Source of the DNA: an uncultured Bacteroidota bacterium
GTDB taxonomy: Bacteria; Bacteroidota; Bacteroidia; AKYH767-A; JABDAW01
NCBI GenBank assembly: GCA_903844645.1
Contig: CAIMUP010000013.1
Coordinates: 1,428-65,427, forward strand
Direction: 5' to 3'
DNA: 64,000 bases
This document shows positions 2,984 through 62,239 of the stretch, one piece after another. The notes under the pieces were generated by a model. The model had not been told where the DNA came from and ran no database searches. It worked only from the letters and a program-made list of their open reading frames with translations. Made by a program: the position numbers and the translations under genes. Positions within the stretch are counted from its first letter, which is position 1; each line of letters starts with the position of its first letter.

Positions 2984-3919
2984 ATGGAAGAAAAAGTAAA
3001 ATGTTTAATCATCGGCTCGGGTCCTGCGGGATATACAGCCGCTATTTATGCCGCCAGAGCCGATATGAAACCCGTGCTTTATCAGGGTTTGCAGCCTGGC
3101 GGTCAATTAACCATCACTACCGAAGTAGAGAACTATCCGGGCTACCCCAAGGGCACTATGGGTCCGGAGATGATGGAGGATTTCAAAGCCCAAGCCGAAC
3201 GATTCGGGACAGATATTCGATGGGGATATGCCACCTCGGTGGATTTCTCTGGTGCAGTTCATAAAGTTATTATTGATGAAACCACGACCATCTTCGCCGA
3301 TACGGTAATCATCGCAACCGGTGCTTCTGCCAAGTGGCTCGGATTGGAATCCGAACAACGACTGAATGGTTTCGGGGTATCGGCATGTGCCGTCTGCGAT
3401 GGTTTCTTTTTCAAGAAGCAAGATGTCGCCATCGTTGGTGCCGGAGATACCGCTGCCGAAGAAGCTACTTACCTCGCCAAGCTATGCAACAAGGTGTATA
3501 TGATTATTCGTCGTGATGAGATGCGAGCTTCCAAAGCCATGCAACATCGCGTGCAGAATACTGCCAACATCGAAATTATTTATAACTCCGAAACCAAAGA
3601 AATCCTTGGCGAGAAGACCGTAGAAGCCGTCTTGGTTTATGATATTAAGAACAAGGTAGAGCGGAAACTCGATGTTACTGGCTTCTTCGTCGCGATAGGT
3701 CATCAGCCCAACACCGATTTATTCAAAGGCATCCTCGACATGGATGAAAACGGCTATTTAATCACCATTCCCGGCACTACCAAAACCAATGTCGGAGGCA
3801 TTTTTGCTGCAGGCGATGTCGCTGACCATGTGTATCGCCAAGCCGTTACCGCAGCCGGAACCGGATGTATGGCAGCCATAGATGCCGAAAGATATTTAGC
3901 CGCCAAAGGCATCCATTAA
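2984..3919 (+). CDS. trxB: thioredoxin-disulfide reductase
   Basis: N-terminal FAD-binding 'IIGSGPAGYTAA', redox-active 'CAVCDG', a second dinucleotide site 'VAIVGAGDTAAEEA', and 311 aa, typical of low-Mr thioredoxin reductase. Confidence 0.9.
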   Translation: MEEKVKCLIIGSGPAGYTAAIYAARADMKPVLYQGLQPGGQLTITTEVENYPGYPKGTMGPEMMEDFKAQAERFGTDIRWGYATSVDFSGAVHKVIIDETTTIFADTVIIATGASAKWLGLESEQRLNGFGVSACAVCDGFFFKKQDVAIVGAGDTAAEEATYLAKLCNKVYMIIRRDEMRASKAMQHRVQNTANIEIIYNSETKEILGEKTVEAVLVYDIKNKVERKLDVTGFFVAIGHQPNTDLFKGILDMDENGYLITIPGTTKTNVGGIFAAGDVADHVYRQAVTAAGTGCMAAIDAERYLAAKGIH

Positions 3920-4043
3920 AAGGGGTAAAATAAATTTTGATTAGATAGCTCGCCTGCCGATCTCCTGAATGTTTTTTCTCATTACAAATTTCCTTTTCTT
4001 GTATTTTTTCGAGTTCCCCGAGGAATGAAATTTCTTTAATCGA

Positions 4044-4357
4044 GGCATTAGGAAAAAAAGCAGGGCATCAAATTACCCAATTTCATACCTTAAGTTTTTG
4101 CTCAAGGCATCACATTACCCGATGTGTGGGGTTGAGCAAAAACTTAATGCTTCACATCATCCAATTTGGAGGTATGGGAAAAAAAGTAATGCCCCACATT
4201 ACCCGATTTTGGGGTATGGCAAAAAACCTAATGCCCCACATTACCCAATGTGATGGTATGGCAAAAAACCTAATGCCCCACCTTACCCAATGCGGGGGTA
4301 TGAGCAAAAAAGTAGTGCCTCACATTACCTAATGTGGGGGTGTGATTTTCAATACAT
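4044..4357. repeat. 42-bp (2x21) tandem repeat, about 7 copies, each unit carrying a short hairpin (CCCCACATT-ACCC-AATGTGGGG type)
   Basis: The homologous 5-mer 'GGCAT/TGCNT' recurs at 4064, 4106, 4148, 4190, 4232, 4274 and 4316, exactly 42 bp apart; the ~4044 copy is only 20 bp upstream, i.e. partial. Units are degenerate but clearly homologous. The array lies in the convergent gap between trxB (+) and the symporter (-). Confidence 0.88.
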
Positions 4358-4551
4358 TCAAATATAAAATAAGAATCTCTAAAAATAGCCTCCAAGGTAG
4401 TGATCAAATAGAGCAATCAAAATAAAATAAAAAAATGATTAAATAAAATAATGAAAATTATGATAGACTTCGCAAAGTATTTTTTAATCCTTTTTATGAT
4501 AAATTCATTTACCGGGATAAATTGAAGCAATTTACCGAGGAAGGAGGTATT

Positions 4552-6069
4552 TTATAAACTCACTTTGGGATGAATTTTGTATTTTGCGATTAATAACAAG
4601 CCGATAAAAGTCAGCAGTCCGTTAATCATCAGCATCTCGAATCCGAATTGATAGGAGGTGAATAATTCTTTTGAATAAGTGTTCAGAAGGTAGCAAATTG
4701 TGGGCGGAAAAAGGGCGATGACAGGCACCAATTTATCCCTTACTTGCAGCTTCGTAAAGAGTCCGAAAACAAACAACCCGAGCAAGGGTCCGTAGGTATA
4801 ATTGGCGATGGTGAAGAGGTTATTCAGCACCGATTCTTTGATGGAGGTCTTGAAATAAACGATGACCAACAGCAAAATTATAGCGAAGCACAAATGCACC
4901 ACGCGGCGTACTTGCACTTGCTTCTTCTCGGTCCAGTTTTTTTCTCTGATACCGATAAAATCTATGCAGAAAGAGGTCGTCAAAGCGGTCAAAGCACCGT
5001 CAGCACTCGGGAAGGCTGCAGATATTAATCCGATAATGAAAAAAATACCGGAAACAGGTCCGAGAAAATGCAAGGCAATGGTCGGGAACAGGTCGTCTGA
5101 ATGCACCGGTATCGCAATGTTTTTCGCAGCAGCGAACAGGTAAAGCAATGCCCCCAAACAAAGGAACATAATGTTCACAAAGAAGAGAATAATACTGAAG
5201 GTGAACATGTTTTTTTGGGATTCTTTGAGGGTCTTGCACGAGATATTCTTTTGCATCATCTCTTGGTCTAAGCCCGTCATAGCGATAGCGATAAAAGCAC
5301 CGCCAAAGAAGTGCTTCAAGAAGAATTTTTTGTCGTTAAAATCAGTAACGAAGATGGCGGAATGCGGACGGTTTTTGATATTTGAAATCATATCGGTAAT
5401 GGAGAAGTTCAGTTCTTTCCCGATAAGATAAATCGTGATTACCACGGCTAATAACATGAAGGTTGTTTGCAAGGTATCTGTCCAAACAATCGTCTTTACG
5501 CCGCCCTGAAAGGTATAAAGTAAAATCAATACGATGAATGCCGCAACCGTTACTGTGAAAGGGATTCCCCACTCATCGAAAACGAATATCTGTAACACAT
5601 TAACCACAATATAAAGCCTGAATGACGCACCAATTACTCGCGAAAGCAGGAAGAAAAAAGCACCTGTTTTGTAACTGTATGCCCCGAAGCGTTGCAGTAG
5701 ATAGGAATAGATGGAAGTGAGGTTTAATCTATAATAAAGTGGCAGTAAGATGGTGGCGATAACAGCATACCCGACCATGTATCCTAAGACCATCTGGAAG
5801 TAAGCGAAGTGTTGCGGACCCACCCCTCCGGGTACCGACATAAAGGTTACACCGGATAGCGAAGCACCGATCATTCCGTAGGCTACCAGATACCATTTCG
5901 AGGACCTGTTGCCGATGAAGTAGGTTTCATTCGTGGCGTTGCGGCTGGTAAGATATGTGATGAGGAAAAGCACCGCAGAATACACCACCACGCAGGTTAA
6001 AAGTAAAGAAGGAGTCATTGTTTTTTTATAAGATGAGCAAAGAAACATAAAAGTATGGTAATTTTGCAA
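4552..6069 (-). CDS. sodium:solute symporter family transporter
   Basis: 505 aa, about 13 predicted transmembrane segments, glycine-rich helices typical of the SSF family. Confidence 0.7.
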   Translation of the reverse strand: MQNYHTFMFLCSSYKKTMTPSLLLTCVVVYSAVLFLITYLTSRNATNETYFIGNRSSKWYLVAYGMIGASLSGVTFMSVPGGVGPQHFAYFQMVLGYMVGYAVIATILLPLYYRLNLTSIYSYLLQRFGAYSYKTGAFFFLLSRVIGASFRLYIVVNVLQIFVFDEWGIPFTVTVAAFIVLILLYTFQGGVKTIVWTDTLQTTFMLLAVVITIYLIGKELNFSITDMISNIKNRPHSAIFVTDFNDKKFFLKHFFGGAFIAIAMTGLDQEMMQKNISCKTLKESQKNMFTFSIILFFVNIMFLCLGALLYLFAAAKNIAIPVHSDDLFPTIALHFLGPVSGIFFIIGLISAAFPSADGALTALTTSFCIDFIGIREKNWTEKKQVQVRRVVHLCFAIILLLVIVYFKTSIKESVLNNLFTIANYTYGPLLGLFVFGLFTKLQVRDKLVPVIALFPPTICYLLNTYSKELFTSYQFGFEMLMINGLLTFIGLLLIAKYKIHPKVSL

Positions 6070-8652: not shown

Positions 8653-8721
8653 AAAAATAAAATGAAAAACTATTGCTTTCGGTTTAGGAAAAATGCAGGG
8701 CGGTTTAGCTTTTATATTGAC

Positions 8722-8931
8722 CTGTTTAAAGTTTATGTCGGTCTGTTTAAAGTTTGTATCGGTCTGTTTAAAGTTTAAACAGGTCTGTTTAAAGTTTGTA
8801 TCGGTCTGTTTAAAGTTTAAACAGGTCTGTTTAAAGTTTAAACAGGTCTGTTTAAAGTTTGTATCGGTCTGTTTAAAGTTTAAACAGACCTGTTTAAAAT
8901 TTGTACAGACCTGTTTAAAAACTATATTGAC
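8722..8931. repeat. 21-bp tandem repeat, 10 copies, with alternating units CTGTTTAAAGTTTGTATCGGT and CTGTTTAAAGTTTAAACAGGT
   Basis: 'CTGTTTAAA' begins at 8722, 8743, 8764, ..., 8911, exactly 21 bp apart. The second unit type contains the 19-bp palindrome CTGTTTAAAgTTTAAACAG (GTTTAAAC core). Confidence 0.92.
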
Positions 8932-9712: not shown

Positions 9713-9733
9713 TTTAAGAATTAAATAAACAGG

Positions 9734-9766
9734 AAAGCCTTCGAATTGCAACATTCGGGGGCTTTT
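9734..9766. terminator. bidirectional hairpin terminator between the convergent 9077-9712 ORF and acpH
   Basis: AAAGCCTTCGAAT-tgcaac-ATTCGGGGGCTTTTT, an imperfect stem followed by a T-run and preceded by an A-run. Confidence 0.45.
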
Positions 9767-10356
9767 TAATTTCTATTTGATGCCAATTTATCTTTCGCGA
9801 ATTCCATAATCTGCGGGAAGAACTCCTTGAATTCCTCGGCATATAAATCGTAATCTTTTTTTAAATCATGAATCGAAAGTTCCATCTTCGATTGGAATTT
9901 GGCACGGCGAGCCATCCCCGCCAACACCCGTTCCATCCCCTCGAAGTTAGCATAATTATAGAGCCAATTATATTCTATCATATACGGCATCATCCGCCGA
10001 ATACCTGCCGGAAGAATGGCATCCCTCGCAAGGACTATCTCGTAACAAGATTCGGAATAATCGCTTAATGAAATGTCGGAATAATCCCCCCAGTTCGCAG
10101 CCAGGAAATGGTCGTAGAAGATGTCAATAATCACCGGGGAATATTTGTGATACATCGGTCTCAACCGAACTTTTCCACGCTCCACAATAGGGTGCGTATC
10201 GGTGAATTCATCAATGCCGCGATGCAGTTCGATGCCTTTAATAATACCTACCGAATAACCATCGTAATGCTTGCCCACGACCTGGTCGGCAATAAAATTC
10301 CCAATCATTACTTCAGGGTCATCCCCCGAAAGGTAAAGATGAGCGAGAAAATTCAA
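9766..10356 (-). CDS. acpH: acyl carrier protein phosphodiesterase
   Basis: Characteristic N-terminus 'MNFLAHLYLSGDDPEVMIGNFIAD' and about 196 aa. Confidence 0.85.
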   Translation of the reverse strand: MNFLAHLYLSGDDPEVMIGNFIADQVVGKHYDGYSVGIIKGIELHRGIDEFTDTHPIVERGKVRLRPMYHKYSPVIIDIFYDHFLAANWGDYSDISLSDYSESCYEIVLARDAILPAGIRRMMPYMIEYNWLYNYANFEGMERVLAGMARRAKFQSKMELSIHDLKKDYDLYAEEFKEFFPQIMEFAKDKLASNRN

Positions 10357-20432: not shown

Positions 20433-20466
20433 AAAAAGCGGTACACAGTGTACCGCTTTTTTGTTT
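20433..20466. terminator. bidirectional rho-independent terminator
   Basis: AAAAAGCGGTACACaGTGTACCGCTTTTTTGTTT: a perfect 9-bp GC-rich stem with an A-run before and a T-run after; it sits between convergent genes. Confidence 0.75.
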
Positions 20467-28646: not shown

Positions 28647-28854
28647 TTCACCCTTTTGAGGGATTGTTTTAGGAACTAATACCTTGTAATTTTGCATCCT
28701 TAATTACAAACAATGGATCATTACAATCACATAGCGAATACAACGGATAGCAATCACGACAGAGGCAATGCTTCTGGAAGGTTTTTCAATGGTGGCGGTA
28801 GTGATATGGATACAAATTGTAGTTTAAACATATGCCAAAAAAACTCAAACATAT

Positions 28855-29094
28855 CTTTTAGTAACAATAAGATACCTTTTAGTAACAATAAGATACCTTT
28901 TAGTAACAATAAGATACCTTTTAGTAACAATAAGATACCTTTTAGTAACATAAAGATATGTTTTAGTAACAAAAAGATACCTTTTAGTAACAAAAAGATA
29001 CCTTTTAGTAACAAAAAGATACCTTTTAGTAACAAAAAGATATGTTTTAGTAACAAAAAGATACCTTTTAGTAACAATAAGATATGTTTTAGTT
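28855..29094. repeat. 21-bp tandem repeat, about 11.5 copies (unit CTTTTAGTAACAATAAGATAC, variants AAAAAGATAC / GATATGT)
   Basis: Units start at 28855+21k, checked at 28876; read directly. The array is stop-free in several frames, which produces spurious heptad ORFs on both strands. Confidence 0.92.
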
Positions 29095-34497: not shown

Positions 34498-34679
34498 TGC
34501 CTTTTAATTATGAAATGCAAAAATAGAAAAATTATGTTTCATTAAACAAATGCTACCAAGAATTGTATTCCTTTTATTGTTGCTCCCCAAAGGTCGCAAT
34601 CATAAAAGGAACGTAATGAAACATTTATTTTCCGCCAATTAGGATTCCCTCAAAGCGCATTAATACCCCTATTTTTCCC

Positions 34680-34866
34680 AATGTACACGTGTACAATTCG
34701 TCCTGCAACTGTGTCGGAGGCAATGTTCGGTGTACTTTGCCCCAACACAGTTGTGTTTGCCAATTCTACATGTGTACTATTGGCAAACACAGTTACTTTT
34801 GCAGAAGTACACGTGTAGAATTGGCAAACACAACTGTGTTTGCCAAATGTACACGTGTACATTCAA
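34680..34866. promoter_or_regulatory. cluster of alternating perfect palindromes (TGTACACGTGTACA and TTGGCAAACACAACTGTGTTTGCCAA) in a divergent promoter region
   Basis: A 14-bp perfect palindrome at 34682-34695 and again at about 34849-34862 with degenerate copies between; a 26-bp perfect palindrome at 34821-34846 with half-copies at 34745-34764 and 34781-34795; GTGTAC cores about 41 bp apart. Confidence 0.6.
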
Positions 34867-35028
34867 AATCGCCTTATAAAATCACCCTTTTCTGTTTAAT
34901 CAAATGAAACAAAGGATGCCAATCGGGTAGAATCACTCCTTATATATAGGTGTATTATTCGTTTTCTCTTTTCGGGGAATGCCGCCTTTCATCCTTTTAT
35001 CCCTATTTTTAGTATTTTCGCCCCTCGT

Positions 35029-35292
35029 ATGGCAAGATTTATCCTTATATTATTGATTATTTACGTCCTCTTCCGATTGTTTCGGCGGAGTATCTTTGTA
35101 TATACCGTCAATTCGTTTCAGAATAAGATGGAAGAACAAATGCGGAAACAACAACAACAACAAAAGAAAGAATATCAACAACAACAACGCCAAACAAATG
35201 GTAAAACCAAAGTCGAATTCATCCCTCCCGAGAAAAATAAACGCCCCCACGATACCGATGGTGAATATGTGGATTACGAAGAAATAAAATAA
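35029..35292 (+). CDS. small membrane-anchored protein, DUF4834-like
   Basis: 87 aa; N-terminal TM helix 'FILILLIIYVLFRLF' then a Gln/Lys/Glu-rich tail. The family call is from memory. Confidence 0.4.
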   Translation: MARFILILLIIYVLFRLFRRSIFVYTVNSFQNKMEEQMRKQQQQQKKEYQQQQRQTNGKTKVEFIPPEKNKRPHDTDGEYVDYEEIK

Positions 35293-35323
35293 CCGACTTC
35301 CCTTTTATAAAACAAGATATAGT

Positions 35324-37846
35324 ATGAATAAAAACCTCAAAAACCAACTGATAAAACACGCATTAGTAGTTATGGGATTCATCGCCATAACGATGATTTA
35401 CTTCTCCCCATTGATGGAGAACAAAGAACTGAAACAAGGCGATATAGACCACTGGTATGGCGGCGCAAAAGAGATTCTCGATTTCCGCAAAACACACAAT
35501 GCAGAAGCCCTCTGGACGAACTCCATGTTCGGCGGAATGCCAGCCTATCAAATCTCGGTGCTGTATCCCTCAAACCTGATACAGTATGTGAATAAAGCAC
35601 TGACTTTCGGCATCCCGAACCCCGCAAATTATATGTTTTTATACTTCCTCGGCTTCTATCTTTTGCTCTTGGTCATGAAGATAGATTGGCGGCTTGCGGC
35701 ATTAGGAGCTATTGCGTTTGGGCTGTCGTCTTATCTAATAATCATCATCGAAGCAGGGCATAATACCAAGGCAGAGGCAGTAGGATATATGGCTCCCGTA
35801 CTGGCAGGCATCATCCTGACCTATCGCGGAAGATTCCTGATAGGCGGGGCATTAACAGCATTGGCGATGGCGTTGGAAATTAATTCAAACCATCCGCAAG
35901 TAACGTATTATTTGTTCATGATTATCGGATTGATGCTCGCCGTACAACTTTATACCACCTGGAAAGAGAAGGCATGGAAAACTTTTATCACTGCATCAGG
36001 AATTGTAGGCGTGGTAACGGTATTGGCAGTGCTGACCAGCATCACAAGCCTCTGGGCAACGGCAGATTATGGCAAATATTCCACCCGTGGACAGAGCGAG
36101 TTGGCAGCTAAGAAATCATCTACTGGATTGGATAGGGATTATGTCTTCGGATGGAGCTACGGTAATGCCGAAGCATGGACGTTGTTGGTATCTAATTTCA
36201 AGGGTGGAAGCAGTTCCTGGCCCCTCGGTAAAGATGAAAGTACGTTAGAGAAAGTAAGTCCTAATTACCGTCAAAACATTGCGCAATTCCCTTCTTACTG
36301 GGGCGATCAGCAGTTCACCTCCGGTCCGGTGTATGTCGGGGCGATCATTTGTTTTCTGTTCTTCTTAGGATTATTAATAGTGGATGGGAATGACAGGTGG
36401 TGGTTGCTCGGAGCGACTATCCTTTCTATCGTATTGGCATGGGGAAAGAATTTTCCGGCATTTAATTATTGGATGTTCGATCACTTTCCGGCATACAACA
36501 AGTTCCGTTCGGTAACCATAGCATTAATCATTGCCGAGTTTGCGATGCCGATATTGGCTATCCTCGCATTAAATAAAATACTTAATACCCCGAAATTATT
36601 AGAGACAAAACGTAAGCAATTATTCATCGGGATGGGCGTGGCATTGGGGATAACCATTCTCATCGCCGTATCGCCAACCATGTTTGGGGATGTATATAAA
36701 GCCAACGAATACGAACAACTGAAAGGCGAGATTAAAAAACAAGGAGCGAACGATACCCAAGCCGTCGAGTTCTTGGATAATATCGAGATTGCGCGTAAGG
36801 CGGTGCTGTCTGCCGATGCGTGGAGGAGTTTTATATTTATTGCCCTGGCATGCGGGATGATATATGCCTTTACCCGATTCAAATTCAAGAAAGAATACCT
36901 GATAGTGGGCGTAGGATTATTGATAGTTGTAGATTTATGGGCGGTAGATAAACGGTATTTGAATGATAAGGATTTCGTGGAGGTGAAACATGCCGGAGTG
37001 CCGTACGAACCGCATAAGGTGGATCAGGAAATCCTGAAAGATCCTTCGCCGAATTATAGGGTGATGAACTTGCAAGACCCCTTCAACGATGCCCGAACGA
37101 GCTACTTCCATAAATCTATCGGGGGGTATCACGGAGCTAAATTGAAGCGCATCAAAGAACTCATTGATTACCGCCTCGACCCGGAAGTACAGATGATAAT
37201 AGCCTCCTTCAAATCGAAAGATCCGGCAACGATTGACAGAGCTATCGCGAGTGCCACGTGCATCAATATGCTGAATGGAAAATATATTATCTATAGCCAG
37301 GATGCCCCGCCGTTGCCGAATCAACATGCGTTGGGGAATTGCTGGTTTGTGAAGAACTTCAAGATGGTTGCCAATGCCGATTCAGAGATTAATGCTATGG
37401 GGACTTTCGACCCTGCTACATCTGCCGTGGTTGATCATCGGTTCATGCCTTTGGTGGAGGCAATTCATCCTATGTTTGATTCCACGGCGACCATTAAATT
37501 AACCAGCTATCAACCCAATGATTTGAATTATGAATCTAAAGCATCCACAGAGCAACTCGCCGTCTTCTCCGAGATATACTTCGATGGGGGCTGGAATGCT
37601 TATATTGACGGGAAGCTGACCCCTTACTTCCGCACCGATTATTTATTGCGGGGCATGAGTGTTCCGGCAGGGTCGCATAAGATAGAATTCAAGTTTGAGC
37701 CGACACTTTATTCCACTGGGGAACATATTTCCTTGGTCAGTTCCTTGCTATTATTAATCCTGGTGGGCGGGGTTTCCTTCAAATTCATCAAAGAAAAATT
37801 GGCAGAACCAGAGCCGCAATCACAGCCCAAGGCGATGAAGAAATAG
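35324..37846 (+). CDS. YfhO-family polytopic membrane protein
   Basis: 840 aa; N-terminal multi-TM domain, large extracytoplasmic C-terminal domain and final TM helix, matching YfhO architecture. Confidence 0.7.
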   Translation: MNKNLKNQLIKHALVVMGFIAITMIYFSPLMENKELKQGDIDHWYGGAKEILDFRKTHNAEALWTNSMFGGMPAYQISVLYPSNLIQYVNKALTFGIPNPANYMFLYFLGFYLLLLVMKIDWRLAALGAIAFGLSSYLIIIIEAGHNTKAEAVGYMAPVLAGIILTYRGRFLIGGALTALAMALEINSNHPQVTYYLFMIIGLMLAVQLYTTWKEKAWKTFITASGIVGVVTVLAVLTSITSLWATADYGKYSTRGQSELAAKKSSTGLDRDYVFGWSYGNAEAWTLLVSNFKGGSSSWPLGKDESTLEKVSPNYRQNIAQFPSYWGDQQFTSGPVYVGAIICFLFFLGLLIVDGNDRWWLLGATILSIVLAWGKNFPAFNYWMFDHFPAYNKFRSVTIALIIAEFAMPILAILALNKILNTPKLLETKRKQLFIGMGVALGITILIAVSPTMFGDVYKANEYEQLKGEIKKQGANDTQAVEFLDNIEIARKAVLSADAWRSFIFIALACGMIYAFTRFKFKKEYLIVGVGLLIVVDLWAVDKRYLNDKDFVEVKHAGVPYEPHKVDQEILKDPSPNYRVMNLQDPFNDARTSYFHKSIGGYHGAKLKRIKELIDYRLDPEVQMIIASFKSKDPATIDRAIASATCINMLNGKYIIYSQDAPPLPNQHALGNCWFVKNFKMVANADSEINAMGTFDPATSAVVDHRFMPLVEAIHPMFDSTATIKLTSYQPNDLNYESKASTEQLAVFSEIYFDGGWNAYIDGKLTPYFRTDYLLRGMSVPAGSHKIEFKFEPTLYSTGEHISLVSSLLLLILVGGVSFKFIKEKLAEPEPQSQPKAMKK

Positions 37847-37950
37847 GTTGAATATTTCATTCCAAAAGAAAGCCCTCCCGACATAAAATTGGGAGGGCTT
37901 CTTTTTTTAGCTAAAAGGACGATTTGGGAAGCCCGAAAAATTTTTCCGCT

Positions 37951-38202
37951 ATGAATATCTTTTGCTTCGGGATGAATATCCTTTGCTTCGGGATGAATAT
38001 CCTTTGCTTCGGGATGAATATCCTTTGCTTCGGGGTGAATATCTTTTGCTTCGGGGTGAATATCTTTTGCTTCGGGATGAATATCCTTTGCTTCGGGATG
38101 AATATCCTTTGCTTCGGGATGAATATCTTTTGCTTCGGGATGAATATCTTTTGCATCGGGATGAATATCTTTTCATCCGGCTTCAATACATTTTCATCCC
38201 GG
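37951..38202. repeat. 21-bp tandem repeat, 12 copies (unit ATGAATATCCTTTGCTTCGGG, variant ATCTTTTGCTTCGGGGTGA)
   Basis: 'ATGAATATC' begins at 37951, 37972, ..., 38161, exactly 21 bp apart. Confidence 0.92.
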
Positions 38203-38398
38203 GTTAATGTCTTACATGAACTTTTCCCCGTTATAAAACCCGATTTGGAGGGGTAAAAAGGGAGGTTTTTGGAAATTCTCCACCCTCCATTTCCCACTTT
38301 TAAGTCTCCATTCCCCATTTTCCATTCCCCATTCTTTTTCCATTGTCAGGAAATTTTATAGTTTTGCCCGCCTAACACTAAAATTATATCATAAAATA

Positions 38399-41251: not shown

Positions 41252-41284
41252 TAAAATGGACAAAAAGATGCTTTTTCTATTAAA

Positions 41285-41445
41285 TACGACTACAATGATG
41301 CCGTCATCTCCTACAATGATAGCGTCATCTACTACAATTATGCCGTCATCTACTACAATTATGCCGTCATCTACTACAATGATGGCGTCATCTACTACAA
41401 TTATGCCGTCATCTACTACAATGATGGCAACTTCGACTACACATT
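41285..41445. repeat. 21-bp tandem repeat, about 7.5 copies (unit GCCGTCATCTACTACAATTAT/GAT)
   Basis: 'CGTCATCT' occurs at 41302, 41323 and 41344+21k. The array fills the gap between the 40406 gene (stop 41251) and the 41460 gene. Confidence 0.92.
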
Positions 41446-41459
41446 TATTACATTAATTC

Positions 41460-43867: not shown

Positions 43868-44153
43868 ACGGCTGTTGATTGGAGAAAGTCGGCTGTTGAT
43901 TGGGGAAAGTTGACTGTTGATTGGGGAAAGTCGGCTGTTGATTGGGGAAAGTCGGCTGTTGATTGGGGAAAGTTGACTGTTGATTGGGGAAAGTCGGCTG
44001 TTGATTGGGGAAAGTCGGCTGTTGATTGGGGAAACATGGACGTAGATTGGGGAAACATGGACGTAGATTGCGGAAACATGGACGTAGATTGGGGAAACAT
44101 GGAGGTAGATTGTAGAAACATGGAGGTAGATTGCAGAAACATGGAGGTAGATG
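43868..44153. repeat. 21-bp tandem repeat, about 13.5 copies (units GTCGGCTGTTGATTGGGGAAA / GTTGACTGTTGATTGGGGAAA, decaying into CATGGACGTAGATTGGGGAAA and CATGGAGGTAGATTGCAGAAA)
   Basis: Unit starts at 43888 and 43909+21k; two clear sub-families within one array. Confidence 0.92.
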
Positions 44154-45265: not shown

Positions 45266-45341
45266 TCACCCCTGCCCCTCTCCAAGGGGAGAGGGGTGAA
45301 TAATGAATAAGTCCTCTCGGTGAAAGTCGGGAGGATTTTTT
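45266..45341 (+). terminator. two consecutive hairpins, the second a probable rho-independent terminator
   Basis: A GC-rich imperfect hairpin CACCCCTGCCCCTCTCC-aagg-GGAGAGGGGTG, then TCCTCTCGG-tgaaagt-CGGGAGGATTTTTTTT. Confidence 0.55.
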
Positions 45342-49925: not shown

Positions 49926-50165
49926 GCCGACCGGATTTGGGAAAGATGCGGTCGGATATTTCCTTTCTCCGGTCGGATATTTCTTTTTTCCGGTCGGATA
50001 TTTCTTTTTTCCGGTCGGATATTTCTTTTTTCCGGTCGGATATTTCTTTTTTCCGGTCGGATATTTCCTTTTTCCGGTCGGAGATTTCTTTTTTCCGGTC
50101 GGAGATTTCCTGTTTCCGGTCGGAGATTTCCTTTTTCCGGTCGGATATTTCCCGTTACCGACCAT
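49926..50165. repeat. 21-bp tandem repeat, about 11 copies (unit CCGGTCGGATATTTCTTTTTT, with GAGATTTC variants)
   Basis: 'CGGTCGG' occurs at 49948, 49969+21k; it begins immediately after the dgkA stop. Confidence 0.92.
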
Positions 50166-50299: not shown

Positions 50300-51691
<1,392 letters not shown>

Positions 51692-51721
51692 ATCCCAAAT
51701 AACCTTAATAATGATATAATT

Positions 51722-54368: not shown

Positions 54369-54775
54369 CCGTCATCATATATGAAAACGGACAATCGTAA
54401 TAGTTATTATTGTATTAACTATTGTAATTATTGCTTTAGCAATAGTAAATATGACCATAACGATACCTTGGGCGATATTTTCTATCGTTACTGCAATAAT
54501 AACATATGTAAAAGGTATCCTTAGGATACCAATTATACGTTTTCATATATGATGACGGACGAAAAGGATAGTAAAAGCTGTTATCACGATAGTTATTGTT
54601 GTTATCACAATGGTAAAAGCGGTTATCACAATAGTTATTGCTGTTATCACAATAGTTATTGTAGTTATCACAATAGTTATTGCAGCTATTACAATTGTAA
54701 AAGCAGTTATTATAATAGCTATAACAGTATTCACGATAGCGATGACAAAAACTGTAAGTACATTCATTAGTAATA
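54369..54775. repeat. AT-rich degenerate 21-bp phased repeats (GTTATCACAATAGTTATTGCT-like) with a 21-bp inverted-repeat pair and a central 17-bp palindrome
   Basis: CCGTCATCATATATGAAAACG at 54369-54389 is the exact reverse complement of 54538-54558; palindrome GGTATCCTTAGGATACC at 54514-54530; 21-bp period clearest at 54579-54720. No convincing CDS lies between 53854 and 54978. Confidence 0.8.
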
Positions 54776-57781: not shown

Positions 57782-58020
57782 ATAATTTGGGGCGAAATTA
57801 GTATAATTAAGGATAATAATATGATGAAGTATTTGATAAAAATAAGGATGACAAAAGGAATGCTACACGACAAATTATTTTTTCATAAACTTCAGATTCA
57901 TCTACTAAATGACTACAATTTTTATCTAATAATTTGGAGAATTAATGCCTGCAAAACGGAACAAATTAAGAGCATAAAAATGTGGCTTCTTTGGAATAAA
58001 ATTCTGAATAAGAGGGATTC

Positions 58021-58152
58021 CGACTCGGCTGCGAATGATTTCGTCGTGACTGCGACTATTTTCATCATGACTGCGACCATTTCCGACTAGATTGCGACTA
58101 TTTTCATCGTGACTGCGACCATTTCCGACTAGATTGCGACCATTTTCATCGG
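58021..58152. repeat. 21-bp tandem repeat, 6 copies (alternating TGACTGCGACCATTTCCGACT / AGATTGCGACTATTTTCATCG)
   Basis: 'TGCG' at 58030, 58051, 58072, 58093, 58114 and 58135. The array lies between the co-directional DPP-IV and TPR-membrane genes. Confidence 0.9.
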
Positions 58153-60431: not shown

Positions 60432-61655
60432 TTACTTCTCACCTTCTAAATCATGCCCCATTTTATCCCGTTTCGTGTTGAGATAATCCTTGTTATGGAT
60501 GTTCGATTTTATTGCAATCGGTACGTTTTCCACGATCTCCAGACCATATCCTATCAAGCCCGCTCGCTTCGTCGGGTTATTCGACATTAATTTCATTTTC
60601 GTTACGCCCAAATTCCTTAATATTTGAGCACCCACCCCGTAATCCCTTTCATCCATCTTGAACCCGAGAGCAATATTTGCCTCCACCGTATCCATTCCTT
60701 CTTCTTGCAGTTTGTATGCCCTTAATTTATTCAACAATCCGATGCCCCTTCCCTCTTGATTGATGTAAACTAAAACCCCTTTCCCGGCTTCTTCAATCAT
60801 CTTCAAGGCTCTATGAAGTTGAGGTCCGCAATCGCAGCGGCAACTCCCGAAAATATCACCGGTAAGGCATGACGAATGTACCCTTACCAACACCGCTTCG
60901 TCCTTCTCCCATGTGCCTTTGATGATAGCAAGGTGCTCTTGATCGGTGTTGATTTGTTTGTAAGCGATTAACTTAAAATCGCCCCAGGCTGTCGGCAAAT
61001 TCACCGTTACTTCCTTCTCAATAAGGCTCTCTTTCGAGAGGCGGTATTTGATTAAATCCTCTATCGAAATTATCTTCAAATCGAATCGTTCGGCTATCTT
61101 GAAAAGGTTCGGCAGACGCGCCATCGTACCGTCTTCATTCATTATTTCTACCAGCACTCCCGCCGCTTCGAAGCCGGCTAAGGATGAAATATCAACCGTT
61201 GCTTCCGTATGTCCGGCTCTTCTTAAAACACCGCCATGCTTTGCTTTCAAAGGGAAAATATGTCCCGGTCTGCCCAGATCTTTTGGCATGGTTTCAGGAT
61301 TAATTAAAGCCTGAATCGTCTTGCTTCTATCGCTTGCCGAGATGCCTGTCGTGCAGCCATGTCCCAACAAATCCACCGAGATGGTGAATGGTGTTTCATG
61401 CGACGAGGTGTTCTTCGTAACCATCATATCTAATGCCAATTCCGCGCACCGTTCTTCGGTAATCGAGGCACAAATCAAGCCTCTGCCGTGGGTCGCCATA
61501 AAGTTCACAATATCAGGCGTCGCGTTGCGGGCAGCAGTTACGAAGTCGCCCTCGTTTTCGCGGTCCTCATCATCCACTACGATGATTACTTTACCTTGCC
61601 TGATGTCTTCCAGAGCCTCTTCGATGGTATTTAATTTATGTTGTACGATGTTCAT
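60432..61655 (-). CDS. ribBA: bifunctional 3,4-dihydroxy-2-butanone-4-phosphate synthase / GTP cyclohydrolase II
   Basis: N-terminal RibB region '[17 protein letters not shown]', C-terminal RibA with zinc-binding '[18 protein letters not shown]'. Confidence 0.95.
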
Positions 61656-61932: not shown

Positions 61933-62239
61933 AAAGTCGAGATATTGAAACAATGAATCGTACCCATTAACCACTTAATTGAAGTGAAAGACTATTTTAG
62001 TATAATGAATGACTCATTAAGTATAATGAAAGACTATTTTAGTATAATGAATGACTAAAACACTAATATGAAAGACTAATTACCAGACATGAAAGACCAC
62101 TTCATGTCTGGCAATTAGTCTTTCATATTAGTGAATTAGTCTTTTACCTTAATAAAGTAGTTAATCATTATACTAAAATAGTCTTTCACTTCAATTAAGT
62201 GGTTAATGGGTACGATTCATTGTTTCAAGGTCTCGACTT
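61933..62239. repeat. about 307-bp palindromic element: 73-bp terminal inverted repeats (2 mismatches), internal 21-bp phased TGAA(A/T)GAC repeats, and a central 73-bp palindrome with a CCAGACATG...CATGTCTGG hairpin
   Basis: Left arm 61933-62008 is the reverse complement of right arm 62165-62239. Inner inverted repeat CACTAATATGAAAGACTAATT (62061-62081) pairs with AATTAGTCTTTCATATTAGTG (62113-62133). TGAA(A/T)GAC recurs every 21-22 bp, spacings read 22/21/21/21/21. Confidence 0.9.

Follow-up and report, generated by a model that had tools for sequence, protein, structure and literature searches.

The trxB/symporter junction

The window, the whole 64,000-nucleotide stretch of DNA from an uncultured lake Bacteroidota bacterium that we analyzed, is ordinary chromosome carrying gyrA, ffh, efp and ribBA (Pfam searches). 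Near its start, a trxB-like gene and a sodium:solute symporter gene converge on a 632-bp intergenic region, in a neighborhood that also includes a decarboxylase gene and SusC-like genes. Pfam matches agree with the initial annotation that the 3' ends of these two genes flank a tandem repeat array (Table 1). An identical TrxB-like protein is encoded on nine metagenome contigs, and the symporter was called as 488 aa on all contigs examined.

Table 1. Positions in the window of the array, its parts and the flanking genes.
Feature	Position	Strand	Basis
Thioredoxin-reductase-like gene (trxB), 3' end facing the array	2984-3919	+	Pfam Pyr_redox_2, E = 1.6e-47
Decayed spacer-like remnant GGCATTAGGAAAAAAAGC	4044-4061	+	In-register print; consensus alignment, 4020 block 19/42
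Unit 1: diverged hairpin CATCAAATT-ACCC-AATTTCATA, spacer inverted (T-run on + strand)	4062-4103	+	In-register print, repeat search
Imperfect palindrome with 47-nt arms, centered on the loop of unit 2	4069-4168	.	Inverted-repeat search, 70% complementary
Units 2-6, 42 bp each: 22-nt palindrome (CCCCACATT ACCC AATGTGGGG) plus 20-nt spacer (GTATGGCAAAAAACCTAATG)	4104-4313	+	Repeat finding, motif search
Unit 7, truncated: hairpin 4318-4339, A6 upstream, GTGTGATTTT downstream	4314-4349	+	Folding, terminator scan
AT-rich gene-free spacer, array to symporter stop codon	4358-4551	.	GC content, ORF scan
Sodium:solute symporter gene, 488 aa, 3' end facing the array	4552-6018	-	Pfam SSF, E = 1.6e-22

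Seven 42-bp tandem units lie between the convergent genes, as the initial annotation had proposed. An in-register print places their starts at 4062, 4104, 4146, 4188, 4230, 4272 and 4314, in strict register over 4062-4355 and preceded by a remnant at the left edge, and Tandem Repeats Finder also recovers the array (4111-4341, period 42, 5.5 copies, 78% matches, 4% indels, score 240). The array was said to fill the intergenic region; it occupies 313 of the 632 bases, about half. The DNA beyond it is AT-rich and gene-free as described, with 24.7% GC against 41% in the window and no real-looking ORF.

The ungapped identity of units 1 to 7 to the consensus is 18, 31, 33, 39, 40, 35 and 29 of 42 positions, so the center of the array is homogeneous and its edges are decayed; units 4 and 5 are the best conserved. 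Such a center-to-edge gradient is typical of arrays evolving by unequal exchange. Despite 22% divergence, the 42-bp register is held without net indels, with compensating indels in units 2 and 6. Six of the seven units share one orientation. An A-rich tract accompanies the hairpin in units 2-6, as claimed for every unit, but not in unit 1, where the spacer is reverse-complemented (TTAAGTTTTTGCTCAA versus TTGAGCAAAAACTTAA). Because of this inversion, the left part of the array forms a long imperfect palindrome with a perfect 16-bp core (TTAAGTTTTTGCTCAA / TTGAGCAAAAACTTAA), and this palindrome is the main stem of the minimum-free-energy fold of the array.

The autocorrelation of the array is 0.70 at lag 42 and 0.65 at lag 84. 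At lag 21 it is 0.21, which is no enrichment, and the best match between the two halves of the 42-bp unit is 11 of 21 positions (p = 0.14). We rejected a 21-bp substructure inside the unit on these two results.

Hairpins and terminator potential

The hairpin core CCCCACATT-ACCC-AATGTGGGG has four matches at up to three mismatches, against 0.00 expected in shuffled sequence. The initial annotation placed a hairpin in every unit. Remnants of the stem are present in all units (6-8 of 9 pairs kept, counted by eye), but a good hairpin is kept by unit 7 only. The consensus stem has 9 bp with 4-5 GC pairs and is intact in unit 7 and partly so in units 4-6. The unit 7 hairpin (8 of 9 pairs plus a G-U) has a predicted energy of -11.4 kcal/mol (z = -3.5); those of the other units range from -1 to -9.8 kcal/mol. 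RNA folding, which had been proposed as a check, predicts that the array as a whole is more stable than shuffled sequences on the + strand (z = -4.5) and on the - strand (z = -3.5).

Intrinsic terminators have a GC-containing stem of at least 5-7 bp with a loop of 3-8 nt after a stop codon, and a U-tract within 0-2 nt of the stem. The consensus hairpin of the array fits the stem, the loop and the position. A U-tract so close to the stem is absent from the internal units: on the + strand their stems are followed by an A-run, and on the - strand U6 begins 6-7 nt past the stem. A lenient terminator scan was passed by the two outermost units only, one per strand: unit 7 on the + strand, and unit 1 on the - strand, which reads GGGTAATTTGATGCCC then TGCTTTTTTT. 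Canonical strong intrinsic terminators occur elsewhere in the window, at 9732-9767, 37870-37900 and 45309-45338, with a perfect bidirectional one at 20433-20461; outside the array, none lies in the 632-bp spacer at the trxB/symporter junction. These predictions lend weak support to a terminator or RNA-stability role, and the array would act, at most, as a weak terminator or RNA stabilizer.

The motif at a single locus in the sequences searched

The initial annotation had proposed a genome-wide search for the CCCCACATTACC motif, with a motif unique to this locus counting against its reading. A dispersed family found no support: the 42-bp motif proved to be confined to a single locus in the window, 90 fetched loci, JGI, IMG/VR, plasmids and phages. 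Neither the 64-kb window nor the extra flanks of L001-L003 hold a further copy; within the source genome the search covered about 71 kb. Among the 90 fetched loci, the motif is present in L001-L003 only, each time at the same locus. JGI metagenomes gave one chance-like match on an unrelated high-GC soil contig (L084), IMG/VR gave none, and blastn against plasmids and phages found nothing. Four assemblies have the array and its flanks in 100% identical form and thus show no dynamics within the species.

Rfam 15 returned no match for the array at the gathering threshold, and the best permissive match, manA (17.7 bits, threshold 55.2), is noise; a known structured RNA was rejected on these matches. 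No tRNA or tmRNA was found. A CRISPR array is likewise a poor description: the 20-nt "spacers" repeat one sequence, and the window has no cas domains (Pfam).

Arrays with 21n-bp units throughout the window

Counting arrays with a period of at least 10 and at least three copies, we found 13 in the window, all with a period of 21 or 42. They make up about 4% of the window and are strictly intergenic; of its 19 intergenic regions longer than 120 bp, 13 are occupied by them. Their units form ordered variants and higher-order 42- or 63-bp patterns, and whole inverted arms are present at 61985-62200. In the other 79 Bacteroidota loci (about 1 Mb in total) there are 12 arrays of assorted periods, among which only L004 (period 21) and L005 (period 42) have multiples of 21. 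The 21n rule is restricted to one lineage. Full-text literature searches found no description of period-21 arrays.

We defined a class of lineage-specific 21n-bp intergenic arrays from this window and related genomes. The 42-bp array has a unit of 21n bp with no net indels, and that unit is intergenic and private to its locus; its sequence shows no derivation from a 21-bp unit. The proposed tie to a 21-bp family therefore holds by period and position and fails by sequence, given the missing lag-21 signal, and the link of the 42-bp array to the 21-bp arrays is one of period and position alone.

Two further properties were considered for the class. Dyad symmetry is significant (p < 0.05) in only 3 of 15 arrays (1859, 28847 and 34744) and was rejected as a class property; the array at 8711 looks palindromic by eye and is marginal at p = 0.10. 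A wedge model predicts that most of the 21-bp arrays rank with the most strongly curved stretches of the window. It puts the 42-bp array at the 52nd percentile, and intrinsic curvature was rejected as the function of this array.

Turnover among related genomes

In three of the four related genomes examined (L004, L085 and L090), a period-21 array lies right after the symporter stop codon. In these relatives the symporter is 77-80% identical, and the array unit differs in each. The related genomes thus have an array of unrelated unit at the same site, with L094 as the exception: its symporter is 83% identical, no array lies at the position and the synteny differs. The similarity of units between the arrays of related genomes is not above shuffled expectation; homology suggested by eye (GATTC...CAT, and GGTATG plus an A-run) failed against shuffled controls.

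The closest comparison is between L004 and L085, which are 96% identical over 6 kb and whose arrays do not align. Inversion of the whole array between them was rejected, since direct and reverse-complement comparisons are equally poor (10 versus 11 of 21). Like the 42-bp array, that of L004 has an inverted unit at its edge. The L004-type unit is also present in two other assemblies and in a Logan contig, which breaks off after 1.3 units; in one of these records the copy number differs. Variation in copy number between strains was discarded as evidence of dynamics: one scaffold has an N-gap inside its array and contigs end within arrays, which makes copy numbers unreliable.

Comparison with known systems

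REP/BIME elements of enterobacteria form clusters of imperfect 20-35-nt palindromes at the 3' ends of genes, frequently where two genes converge, and have been assigned roles in protecting mRNA 3' ends and in partial termination. They are dispersed in hundreds of copies whose orientation alternates inside a cluster, and they rely on RAYT transposases. The 42-bp array resembles them in having an imperfect palindrome at gene 3' ends between convergent genes. Unlike them, its motif has no dispersed copies in the 64-kb window and the extra L001-L003 flanks, its units run head to tail at a fixed 42 bp rather than in alternating orientation, and no RAYT or other transposase gene was found by Pfam among the 44 genes of the window. 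A REP-like dispersed family was rejected on the single locus in everything searched. The array is also like a bidirectional intrinsic terminator, with an A-run, a GC-containing stem and a T-run at a convergent junction, especially around unit 7; it differs in that the runs are 6 nt off the stem, the stem is weaker and the whole is repeated sevenfold.

The sopC centromere of plasmid F is built of 12 x 43 bp, every unit containing its own inverted repeat, and R6K has seven 22-bp iterons beside an AT-rich segment. The 42-bp array is like these in its tandem arrangement, with inverted repeats inside units of a similar length (about 21 or 42-43 bp), in its helical phasing and in the adjoining AT-rich DNA. 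It differs in its chromosomal housekeeping setting without partition or replication genes, in its degenerate sites and in the dozen unrelated arrays nearby. MIRU-type mycobacterial VNTRs are a dispersed family in operon spacers, with a small ORF that reaches over the stop and start codons on either side. The window arrays are likewise tandem repeats of tens of base pairs, and an overlapping small ORF of this kind was seen in the 21-bp arrays at 1791-2081 and 41256-41456; the 42-bp array differs in lying between convergent genes and in lacking such an ORF.

BrickBuilt elements of Porphyromonas gingivalis are, like the arrays here, strain-variable intergenic minisatellites of Bacteroidota whose units, of about 21-23 nt, follow one another without spacers (PMC4596501). 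BrickBuilt is one sequence family with 19 elements per genome and a leader and tail with inverted-repeat ends (PMC4596501), whereas each array here has its own unit; the array flanks, compared by eye, have no common sequence and no conserved leader or tail with terminal inverted repeats. The arrays here also have parallels in Borg repeats (PMC9879509). In both, one genome contains numerous arrays, no two of which need share a unit; they lie between genes or extend into gene ends, have partial or degenerate flanking units that suggest local seeds, evolve fast, are missing from relatives and in some cases form hairpins. The Borg arrays are almost perfect and enriched in A, and their units come in many lengths, only 14-38% of the intergenic ones being divisible by three (PMC9879509). 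The units here differ in being always 21 or 42 bp and imperfect and in lying on a bacterial chromosome, whereas Borgs are extrachromosomal.

Alternative explanations

Could the array be a selected stack, in which each hairpin would end or protect the transcripts of the two convergent genes, in the manner of REP elements at 3' ends? Its convergent location in a spacer with no other canonical terminator, its folding stability on both strands, the outermost units that pass the lenient scan on one strand each, the hairpin followed by U6 that the symporter-sense strand reads in every unit and three apparent compensatory stem changes in unit 1 (read from the sequence) would all be explained. We nevertheless consider such a stack unlikely, because most stems have lost 2-3 of 9 pairs, with weak predicted energies of -1 to -6 kcal/mol, z-scores are near 0 for units 1-3, on the - strand the U-run is displaced from the stem, with an A-run in its place on the + strand, and the real terminators of this genome have longer GC-rich stems with an adjoining T-run. 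Moreover, the same-site arrays of related genomes have no hairpins and carry a T-run on either strand. Phased binding sites, with the dyad CACATT-N4-AATGTG recurring every 42 bp (four helical turns) beside AT-rich DNA so that a dimeric protein would sit on one helix face as at sopC-type centromeres or iterons, would fit the dyad-symmetric core, the exact phasing kept by compensating indels and the adjoining 25%-GC region. This is decidedly improbable. No ParA/ParB, Rep or other candidate binding-protein gene is nearby on what is ordinary chromosome with no plasmid or phage similarity, the window has no other copy of the dyad (two 2-mismatch matches are within chance expectation), the half-sites are degenerate in most units, and thirteen unrelated arrays in 64 kb cannot each have a dedicated protein.

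A non-coding RNA gene on the - strand is also improbable. In such a gene the Bacteroidetes-type -7 box TATATTTG at 4366-4359 (- strand) would drive a repeat RNA of about 290 nt ending at the terminator-like element 4078-4053. A match to the box at the array edge, a sigma-70-like match at 4487-4460 (- strand) and a terminator-like hairpin with T7 at the far end, again on the - strand, point in this direction, and Borg intergenic repeats have been proposed as regulatory RNAs (PMC9879509). The -7 box is, however, a weak, chance-level match, TANNTTTG occurs in the window at chance frequency (67 observed versus 64.6 expected), no -33 element was found by eye, Rfam gives no match and no sequence conservation extends beyond this species. 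The array is non-coding. A small protein of 14-residue repeats (GMAKNLMPHITQCG) from the 68-aa ORF 4126-4332 (+) has in its favor a unit length divisible by three and an ORF covering about five units, but we give it very little credence: its GTG start codon would lie within a hairpin, the ORF is called as a gene on none of 6 contigs, no frame is open across 4104-4344, and Pfam has no significant match (Caerin_1 at E = 1e-3 is meaningless). Over all arrays, open frames show no excess in sense (13/33) over antisense (10/33). With no open frame, sense bias or gene call, a coding array was rejected. An assembly artefact is scarcely credible, even though a common metagenome assembler has 21 as its smallest k, the assemblies behind several contigs have k141 names and contig breaks or N-gaps fall within arrays. 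Against it, the 42-bp array is identical in four assemblies, the units form ordered variants and higher-order patterns, the arrays are strictly intergenic, the same units are found in ENA, JGI, NCBI and Logan records (the last from a different assembler), and other MAGs of the same projects have no such arrays.

Origin and significance

The explanation that we favor, with confidence only modestly above even, is that the array is a locus-private non-coding minisatellite, amplified in place, and a member of a lineage-specific population of 21n-bp arrays. We infer its origin as follows. A seed of about 42 bp at the convergent trxB/symporter junction would have had the architecture of a bidirectional intrinsic terminator, with an A-run on one side of a 9-bp-stem palindrome and a T-run on the other; the candidate for this ancestral seed is unit 7. 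Tandem amplification by slipped-strand or unequal-exchange events may then have produced the array, with one fold-back (inverted) event at its left edge, and ageing would have left a homogenized center and decayed edges with the 42-bp register kept. Any present effect on RNA would be secondary. In symporter-sense RNA, every unit reads as a hairpin with U6 after it. The weak terminator-like element on each strand, that is, the unit 7 hairpin and the inverted unit 1, suggests that the array may be a leaky bidirectional terminator or 3'-end stabilizer.

Plain slippage does not account for periods that are exclusively 21n. A bolder and rather doubtful possibility is that an undescribed process in this small freshwater Bacteroidota clade acts as a 21-bp "ruler", by which arrays would arise from local seeds, their unit would be fixed at 21n bp and their sequence would be swapped wholesale between 96%-identical genomes. 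Twenty-one base pairs are two helical turns and also seven codons, and the ruler could be an enzyme that drives duplication or template switching, or else selection that favors helical phasing.

Taken alone, the 42-bp array is a modest curiosity, a decaying hairpin minisatellite and possible weak terminator. Its importance is that of a clear and datable case of a genome-wide 21n rule of which no description was found, and the interest lies in what sets the 21-bp period rather than in a fairly ordinary array. Arrays of unrelated sequence with an invariant 21n-bp unit account for about 4% of the DNA of this clade and for most of its long intergenic spacers, and they turn over far faster than their flanks. 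In practice, the arrays break or distort short-read assemblies of these MAGs. If the ruler were real, hypervariable non-coding loci of a new class would be at hand, and for many of these strong curvature is predicted. A specific mechanism behind the period, if there is one, would give bacteria a new source of programmed variation in non-coding DNA and would offer a natural experiment on helically phased DNA, to be compared with Borg repeats and with eukaryotic minisatellites matched to the helical repeat.

Structure of the 42-bp array

The seven 42-bp tandem units described in the initial annotation are real: Tandem Repeats Finder reports a period of 42 with 5.5 copies, 78% matches and 4% indels at 4111–4341, and all seven units can be printed in register. 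Each unit consists of a 22-nt palindrome (the hairpin core) and a 20-nt spacer, with the consensus AATG-CCCCACATT-ACCC-AATGTGGGG-GTATGGCAAAAAACCT; the core gives 4 matches at ≤3 mismatches and the spacer 3, with 0 expected by chance for each. The converging genes are likewise as annotated. The repeats had been said to fill the intergenic region between them, yet they occupy only 313 of its 632 bases. The AT-rich, gene-free stretch downstream is present at 4358–4551, where GC is 24.7% versus 41% overall and a search found no credible ORF.

From left to right, the units match the consensus at 18, 31, 33, 39, 40, 35 and 29 of 42 positions. The edges are decayed while the centre is homogeneous, which is the pattern expected of an array shaped by unequal exchange. 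Paired insertions and deletions in units 2 and 6 leave the register at exactly 42. The spacer of unit 1 is the reverse complement of the spacers of the other units, and this inversion creates an imperfect palindrome with 47-nt arms (4069–4168) around a perfect 16-bp core.

The hairpins themselves are modest. By eye, each unit keeps 6–8 of 9 stem pairs, folding energies in 28-nt windows range from −1.0 to −11.4 kcal/mol across units, z-scores for units 1–3 are ~0, and only unit 7 retains a well-preserved hairpin (4318–4339). Folding of the array, a check proposed at the outset, shows that the whole array folds better than shuffled sequence (z = −4.5 on the + strand, −3.5 on the − strand), with the long palindrome around unit 2 contributing much of this.

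Genes and arrays at the junction, in the window and in related genomes (positions in the last three rows refer to the related contigs)
Feature	Position	Strand	Unit	Copies
trxB-like oxidoreductase	2984–3919	+
Spacer-like remnant, left of unit 1	4044–4061
42-bp units 1–7 (starts)	4062, 4104, 4146, 4188, 4230, 4272, 4314			7
Sodium:solute symporter	4552–6018	−
Period-21 array	1859–2044
Period-21 array	8711–8919
Period-21 array	28847–29093
Period-21 array	37951–38213
Period-21 array	41289–41426
Period-21 array	43868–44152
Period-21 array	49949–50152
Period-21 array	51563–51690
Period-21 array	54399–54722
Period-21 array	58018–58151
Period-21 array	61985–62200
L004 array	3968–4122		GATTCTCATACAAATAAAACA	7.4
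L085 array	4151–4305		GATTCACATGTTTTTTTTTCT	7.4
L090 array	5721–5853		ATTCAAGGTATGTAGAAAACA	about 6

Possible terminator function

The initial annotation read the stacked hairpins as terminators or RNA-stability elements. Textbook intrinsic terminators occur in the window at 9732–9767, 20433–20461 (perfectly bidirectional, in a convergent spacer), 37870–37900 and 45309–45338, and none of that quality lies at the trxB/symporter junction. On the + strand of the array each stem is followed by an A-run, and on the − strand, the symporter sense, U6 begins 6–7 nt past each stem. A lenient scan passes only unit 7 (+; then GTGTGATTTT) and the unit-1 remnant (−; then TGCTTTTTTT). The internal units have the look of passengers. 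Unit 7, whose hairpin is the best kept and has A6 upstream and a T-run downstream, probably descends from an ancestral bidirectional terminator that acted as seed, and it may still work weakly as one. A Bacteroidetes-type −7 box (TATATTTG, − strand, 4366–4359) touches the array edge; such boxes are not enriched in the window (67 observed versus 64.6 expected), in keeping with chance.

Elsewhere, the strong canonical terminator at 37870–37900 lies between the stop of the gene at 35324–37846 and the 21-bp array that follows, which places that array outside the upstream transcript and in the promoter-proximal region of the gene downstream.

Period of the arrays across the window

With thresholds of period ≥10 and ≥3 copies, the window contains 13 arrays, every one with a period of 21 or 42. 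The unit differs in each and indels are almost nil. All are intergenic, and together they cover ~4% of the window; of its 19 spacers above 120 bp, 13 are occupied by arrays. A 41/42-bp palindromic array (34744–34861) is additional to the 13. The proposed tie between the 42-bp unit and the 21-bp family finds support in period and place but not within the unit: autocorrelation is 0.70 at lag 42 and 0.21, without enrichment, at lag 21. In 79 loci from other Bacteroidota species (~1 Mb in total, fetched through the symporter gene), only 12 such arrays occur, with periods of 10, 11, 11, 14, 14, 21, 29, 33, 36, 36, 41, 42 and 44, and the only multiples of 21 are in L004 (21), the closest relative, and in locus L005 (42). 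Array density in the window is ~20× that of these other sampled loci.

Several arrays have features of their own. At least twelve intergenic arrays repeat at exactly 21 bp, and some of these also show a higher-order pattern of 42 or 63 bp. Another array rich in hairpins, the second of its kind, has a ~42-bp unit (34680–34870; palindromes TTGCCAAATGTACAC/GTGTACAATTGGCAA and AACACAGTTGTGTT), sits in a divergent 826-bp spacer (34498–35323) and is the sole array in a divergent spacer. Inverted units recur at array edges: the left flank of the L004 array is the reverse complement of its unit, and at 61937–62237 21-bp units are opposed on the two ~145-bp arms of a near-perfect ~300-bp palindrome centred near 62087. 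This palindrome lies in an 843-bp spacer upstream of ribBA (60432–61655, −) and matches no FMN riboswitch or other Rfam family.

One 21-bp array (51521–51721; AGKDDNY-type heptads) starts inside the 3' end of an aminotransferase gene (50300–51544), is broken by that gene's single TAA stop, and then runs in frame and stop-free to the ATG (51722) with which the following gene starts; it is in frame with both neighbouring genes over 51521–51690. Two small ORFs over 21-bp arrays exactly fill gaps between co-directional genes, an arrangement similar to MIRU, although the unit variants are non-synonymous: one (1791–2081) overlaps the upstream stop and the downstream ATGA start, and the other (41256–41456) begins 5 nt past the upstream stop, with 3 nt left between its end and the following ATG. 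Across arrays between co-directional genes, open frames are no commoner on the sense than on the antisense strand.

Dyad symmetry is not general to the arrays, being significant in 3 of 15; the unit of the array at 8711 is palindromic by eye and statistically marginal. Curvature was estimated with a wedge model, and the values are indicative only. When 147-bp segments of the window are ranked by curvature in this model, the first 25 all lie within or next to 21-bp arrays, and the top 5% includes 10 of 14 arrays. Any DNA with a 21-bp period curves in this way, because 21 bp corresponds to two helical turns (10.5 bp each). The 42-bp array ranks at the 52nd percentile, and curvature thus cannot be its function. 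By the same indicative model, the most curved DNA lies at 28847–29093, 51563–51690, 1859–2044, 41289–41426 and 61985–62078, with an end-to-end/contour ratio of 0.36 at 28939 versus a window mean of 0.94.

Alternative identities

Could the array belong to a dispersed family? Neither the core nor the spacer has further copies in the 64-kb window, and among 90 fetched loci they occur only at the same locus on 3 other contigs of the same population. A degenerate 25-mer scan returned one single-copy match in JGI metagenomes, on an unrelated high-GC contig, and 0 in IMG/VR; blastn against plasmids and phages found no match to the array. The JGI hit (L084:700–860), the sole metagenome match to the degenerate hairpin pattern, is on a soil contig with its own short repeat (GATGCCCCAC...ACACA), and we judged it a chance match. 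Within the sequences covered, the motif search suggested in the initial annotation leaves the hairpin at a single locus. A known RNA was ruled out, with no match for the array, and no tRNA or tmRNA is present. The "spacers" are themselves repeated, so the array is not a CRISPR. Coding is very unlikely: no open frame crosses 4104–4344, no gene is called at the array on 6 contigs, and a 68-aa ORF begins at a GTG within a hairpin. The neighbourhood is ordinary chromosome (gyrA, ffh, efp, ribBA, T9SS cargo genes and SusC-like genes), with no partition, replication, recombinase or reverse-transcriptase genes.

Replacement of arrays between relatives

The source is an uncultured freshwater Bacteroidota, and contigs from lake metagenomes encode an identical trxB protein. 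Four assemblies from the same population agree at all 646 bases around the array; the flanks are equally identical, so this carries no information on constraint. The nearest symporter relatives are L004 and L085–L089 (80% identical) and L090 (77%). In three of these related genomes (L004, L085 and L090) a period-21 array lies shortly past the symporter stop with a different unit in each, and these units and the halves of the 42-bp unit resemble one another no more than shuffled sequences do. In L094 (symporter 83% identical) there is no array, and the downstream gene is different.

On the two sides of the array, L004 and L085 share 96% identity over 6 kb and their intergenic flanks align almost perfectly, whereas their arrays cannot be aligned (L091, L092 and L093 are also involved). 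About 10 of 21 positions differ per unit, mostly an A-run versus a T-run. The two arrays still share their place and their register, and their assembled lengths are one unit apart. Under neutral concerted evolution, the unit consensus should change no faster than the flanks. The arrays are far more diverged than that, which indicates that they were replaced or re-seeded rather than diverging slowly. The two genomes also have unrelated spacers past the neighbouring decarboxylase gene, each with period-21 arrays of its own.

A k = 21 assembly artefact was also considered. The L004-type unit recurs on one further scaffold and in a separate assembly (only three units there), and a Logan contig from a different assembler ends 1.3 units into an L004-type array; this reproduction argues against an artefact. 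The same comparison shows that assembled copy numbers are not trustworthy. Short-read assemblies break, carry N-gaps and possibly misjoin at arrays (L002:7012–7111, the ends of L092 and L093, and L003 after 6892, where synteny differs directly after the 8711-type array), which makes the copy numbers of these MAGs, and some of their junctions, unreliable.

Origin and significance

The 42-bp array is most likely a single-locus minisatellite amplified in place. We propose that its seed was a terminator-like palindrome at the trxB/symporter junction, amplified by slippage and fold-back in a lineage-specific process that would be common to all the other 21n-bp arrays, and that the array is now decaying from its edges with its register preserved. 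At most, it would contribute in a weak and secondary way to the termination or stability of the convergent trxB and symporter transcripts. The analysis establishes the structure of the array, its uniqueness and non-coding nature, the 21n period, the restriction to one lineage and the rapid replacement; the seed, its amplification mechanism and any influence on RNA are proposals. The initial observation is thus confirmed and its interpretation partly supported.

Among known systems, Borg tandem repeats are closest in behaviour, with numerous private arrays that have local seeds, turn over rapidly and are missing from relatives, but they have no fixed unit length, are near-perfect and reside on archaeal extrachromosomal elements (PMC9879509). 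BrickBuilt of P. gingivalis, a 23-nt minisatellite from the same phylum, differs in being one dispersed MITE family with leader and tail (PMC4596501). In TAACTGA heptamer arrays, one motif is shared by all (PMC4679880). At least one tested defining feature separates the 42-bp array from REP/BIME elements, from sopC and iterons, from MIRUs and from CRISPR arrays. Eukaryotic minisatellites remodelled to the helical repeat, as described in a 2026 preprint (10.64898/2026.08.08.743475), are a conceptual parallel only. A full-text literature search turned up no description of bacterial arrays with a period of 21.

Twenty-one is the smallest length with whole helical turns and whole codons. Speculatively, copy-number changes in steps of 21n would spare rotational phasing and any overlapping frame, and the array in frame with both of its neighbours is in line with this idea. 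As an intergenic minisatellite with hairpins, the 42-bp array itself belongs to a familiar type. What sets the class apart and deserves follow-up is the 21n rule, together with the way in which whole arrays are replaced between genomes that are nearly identical, and the class would be more interesting still if a period-setting mechanism exists.
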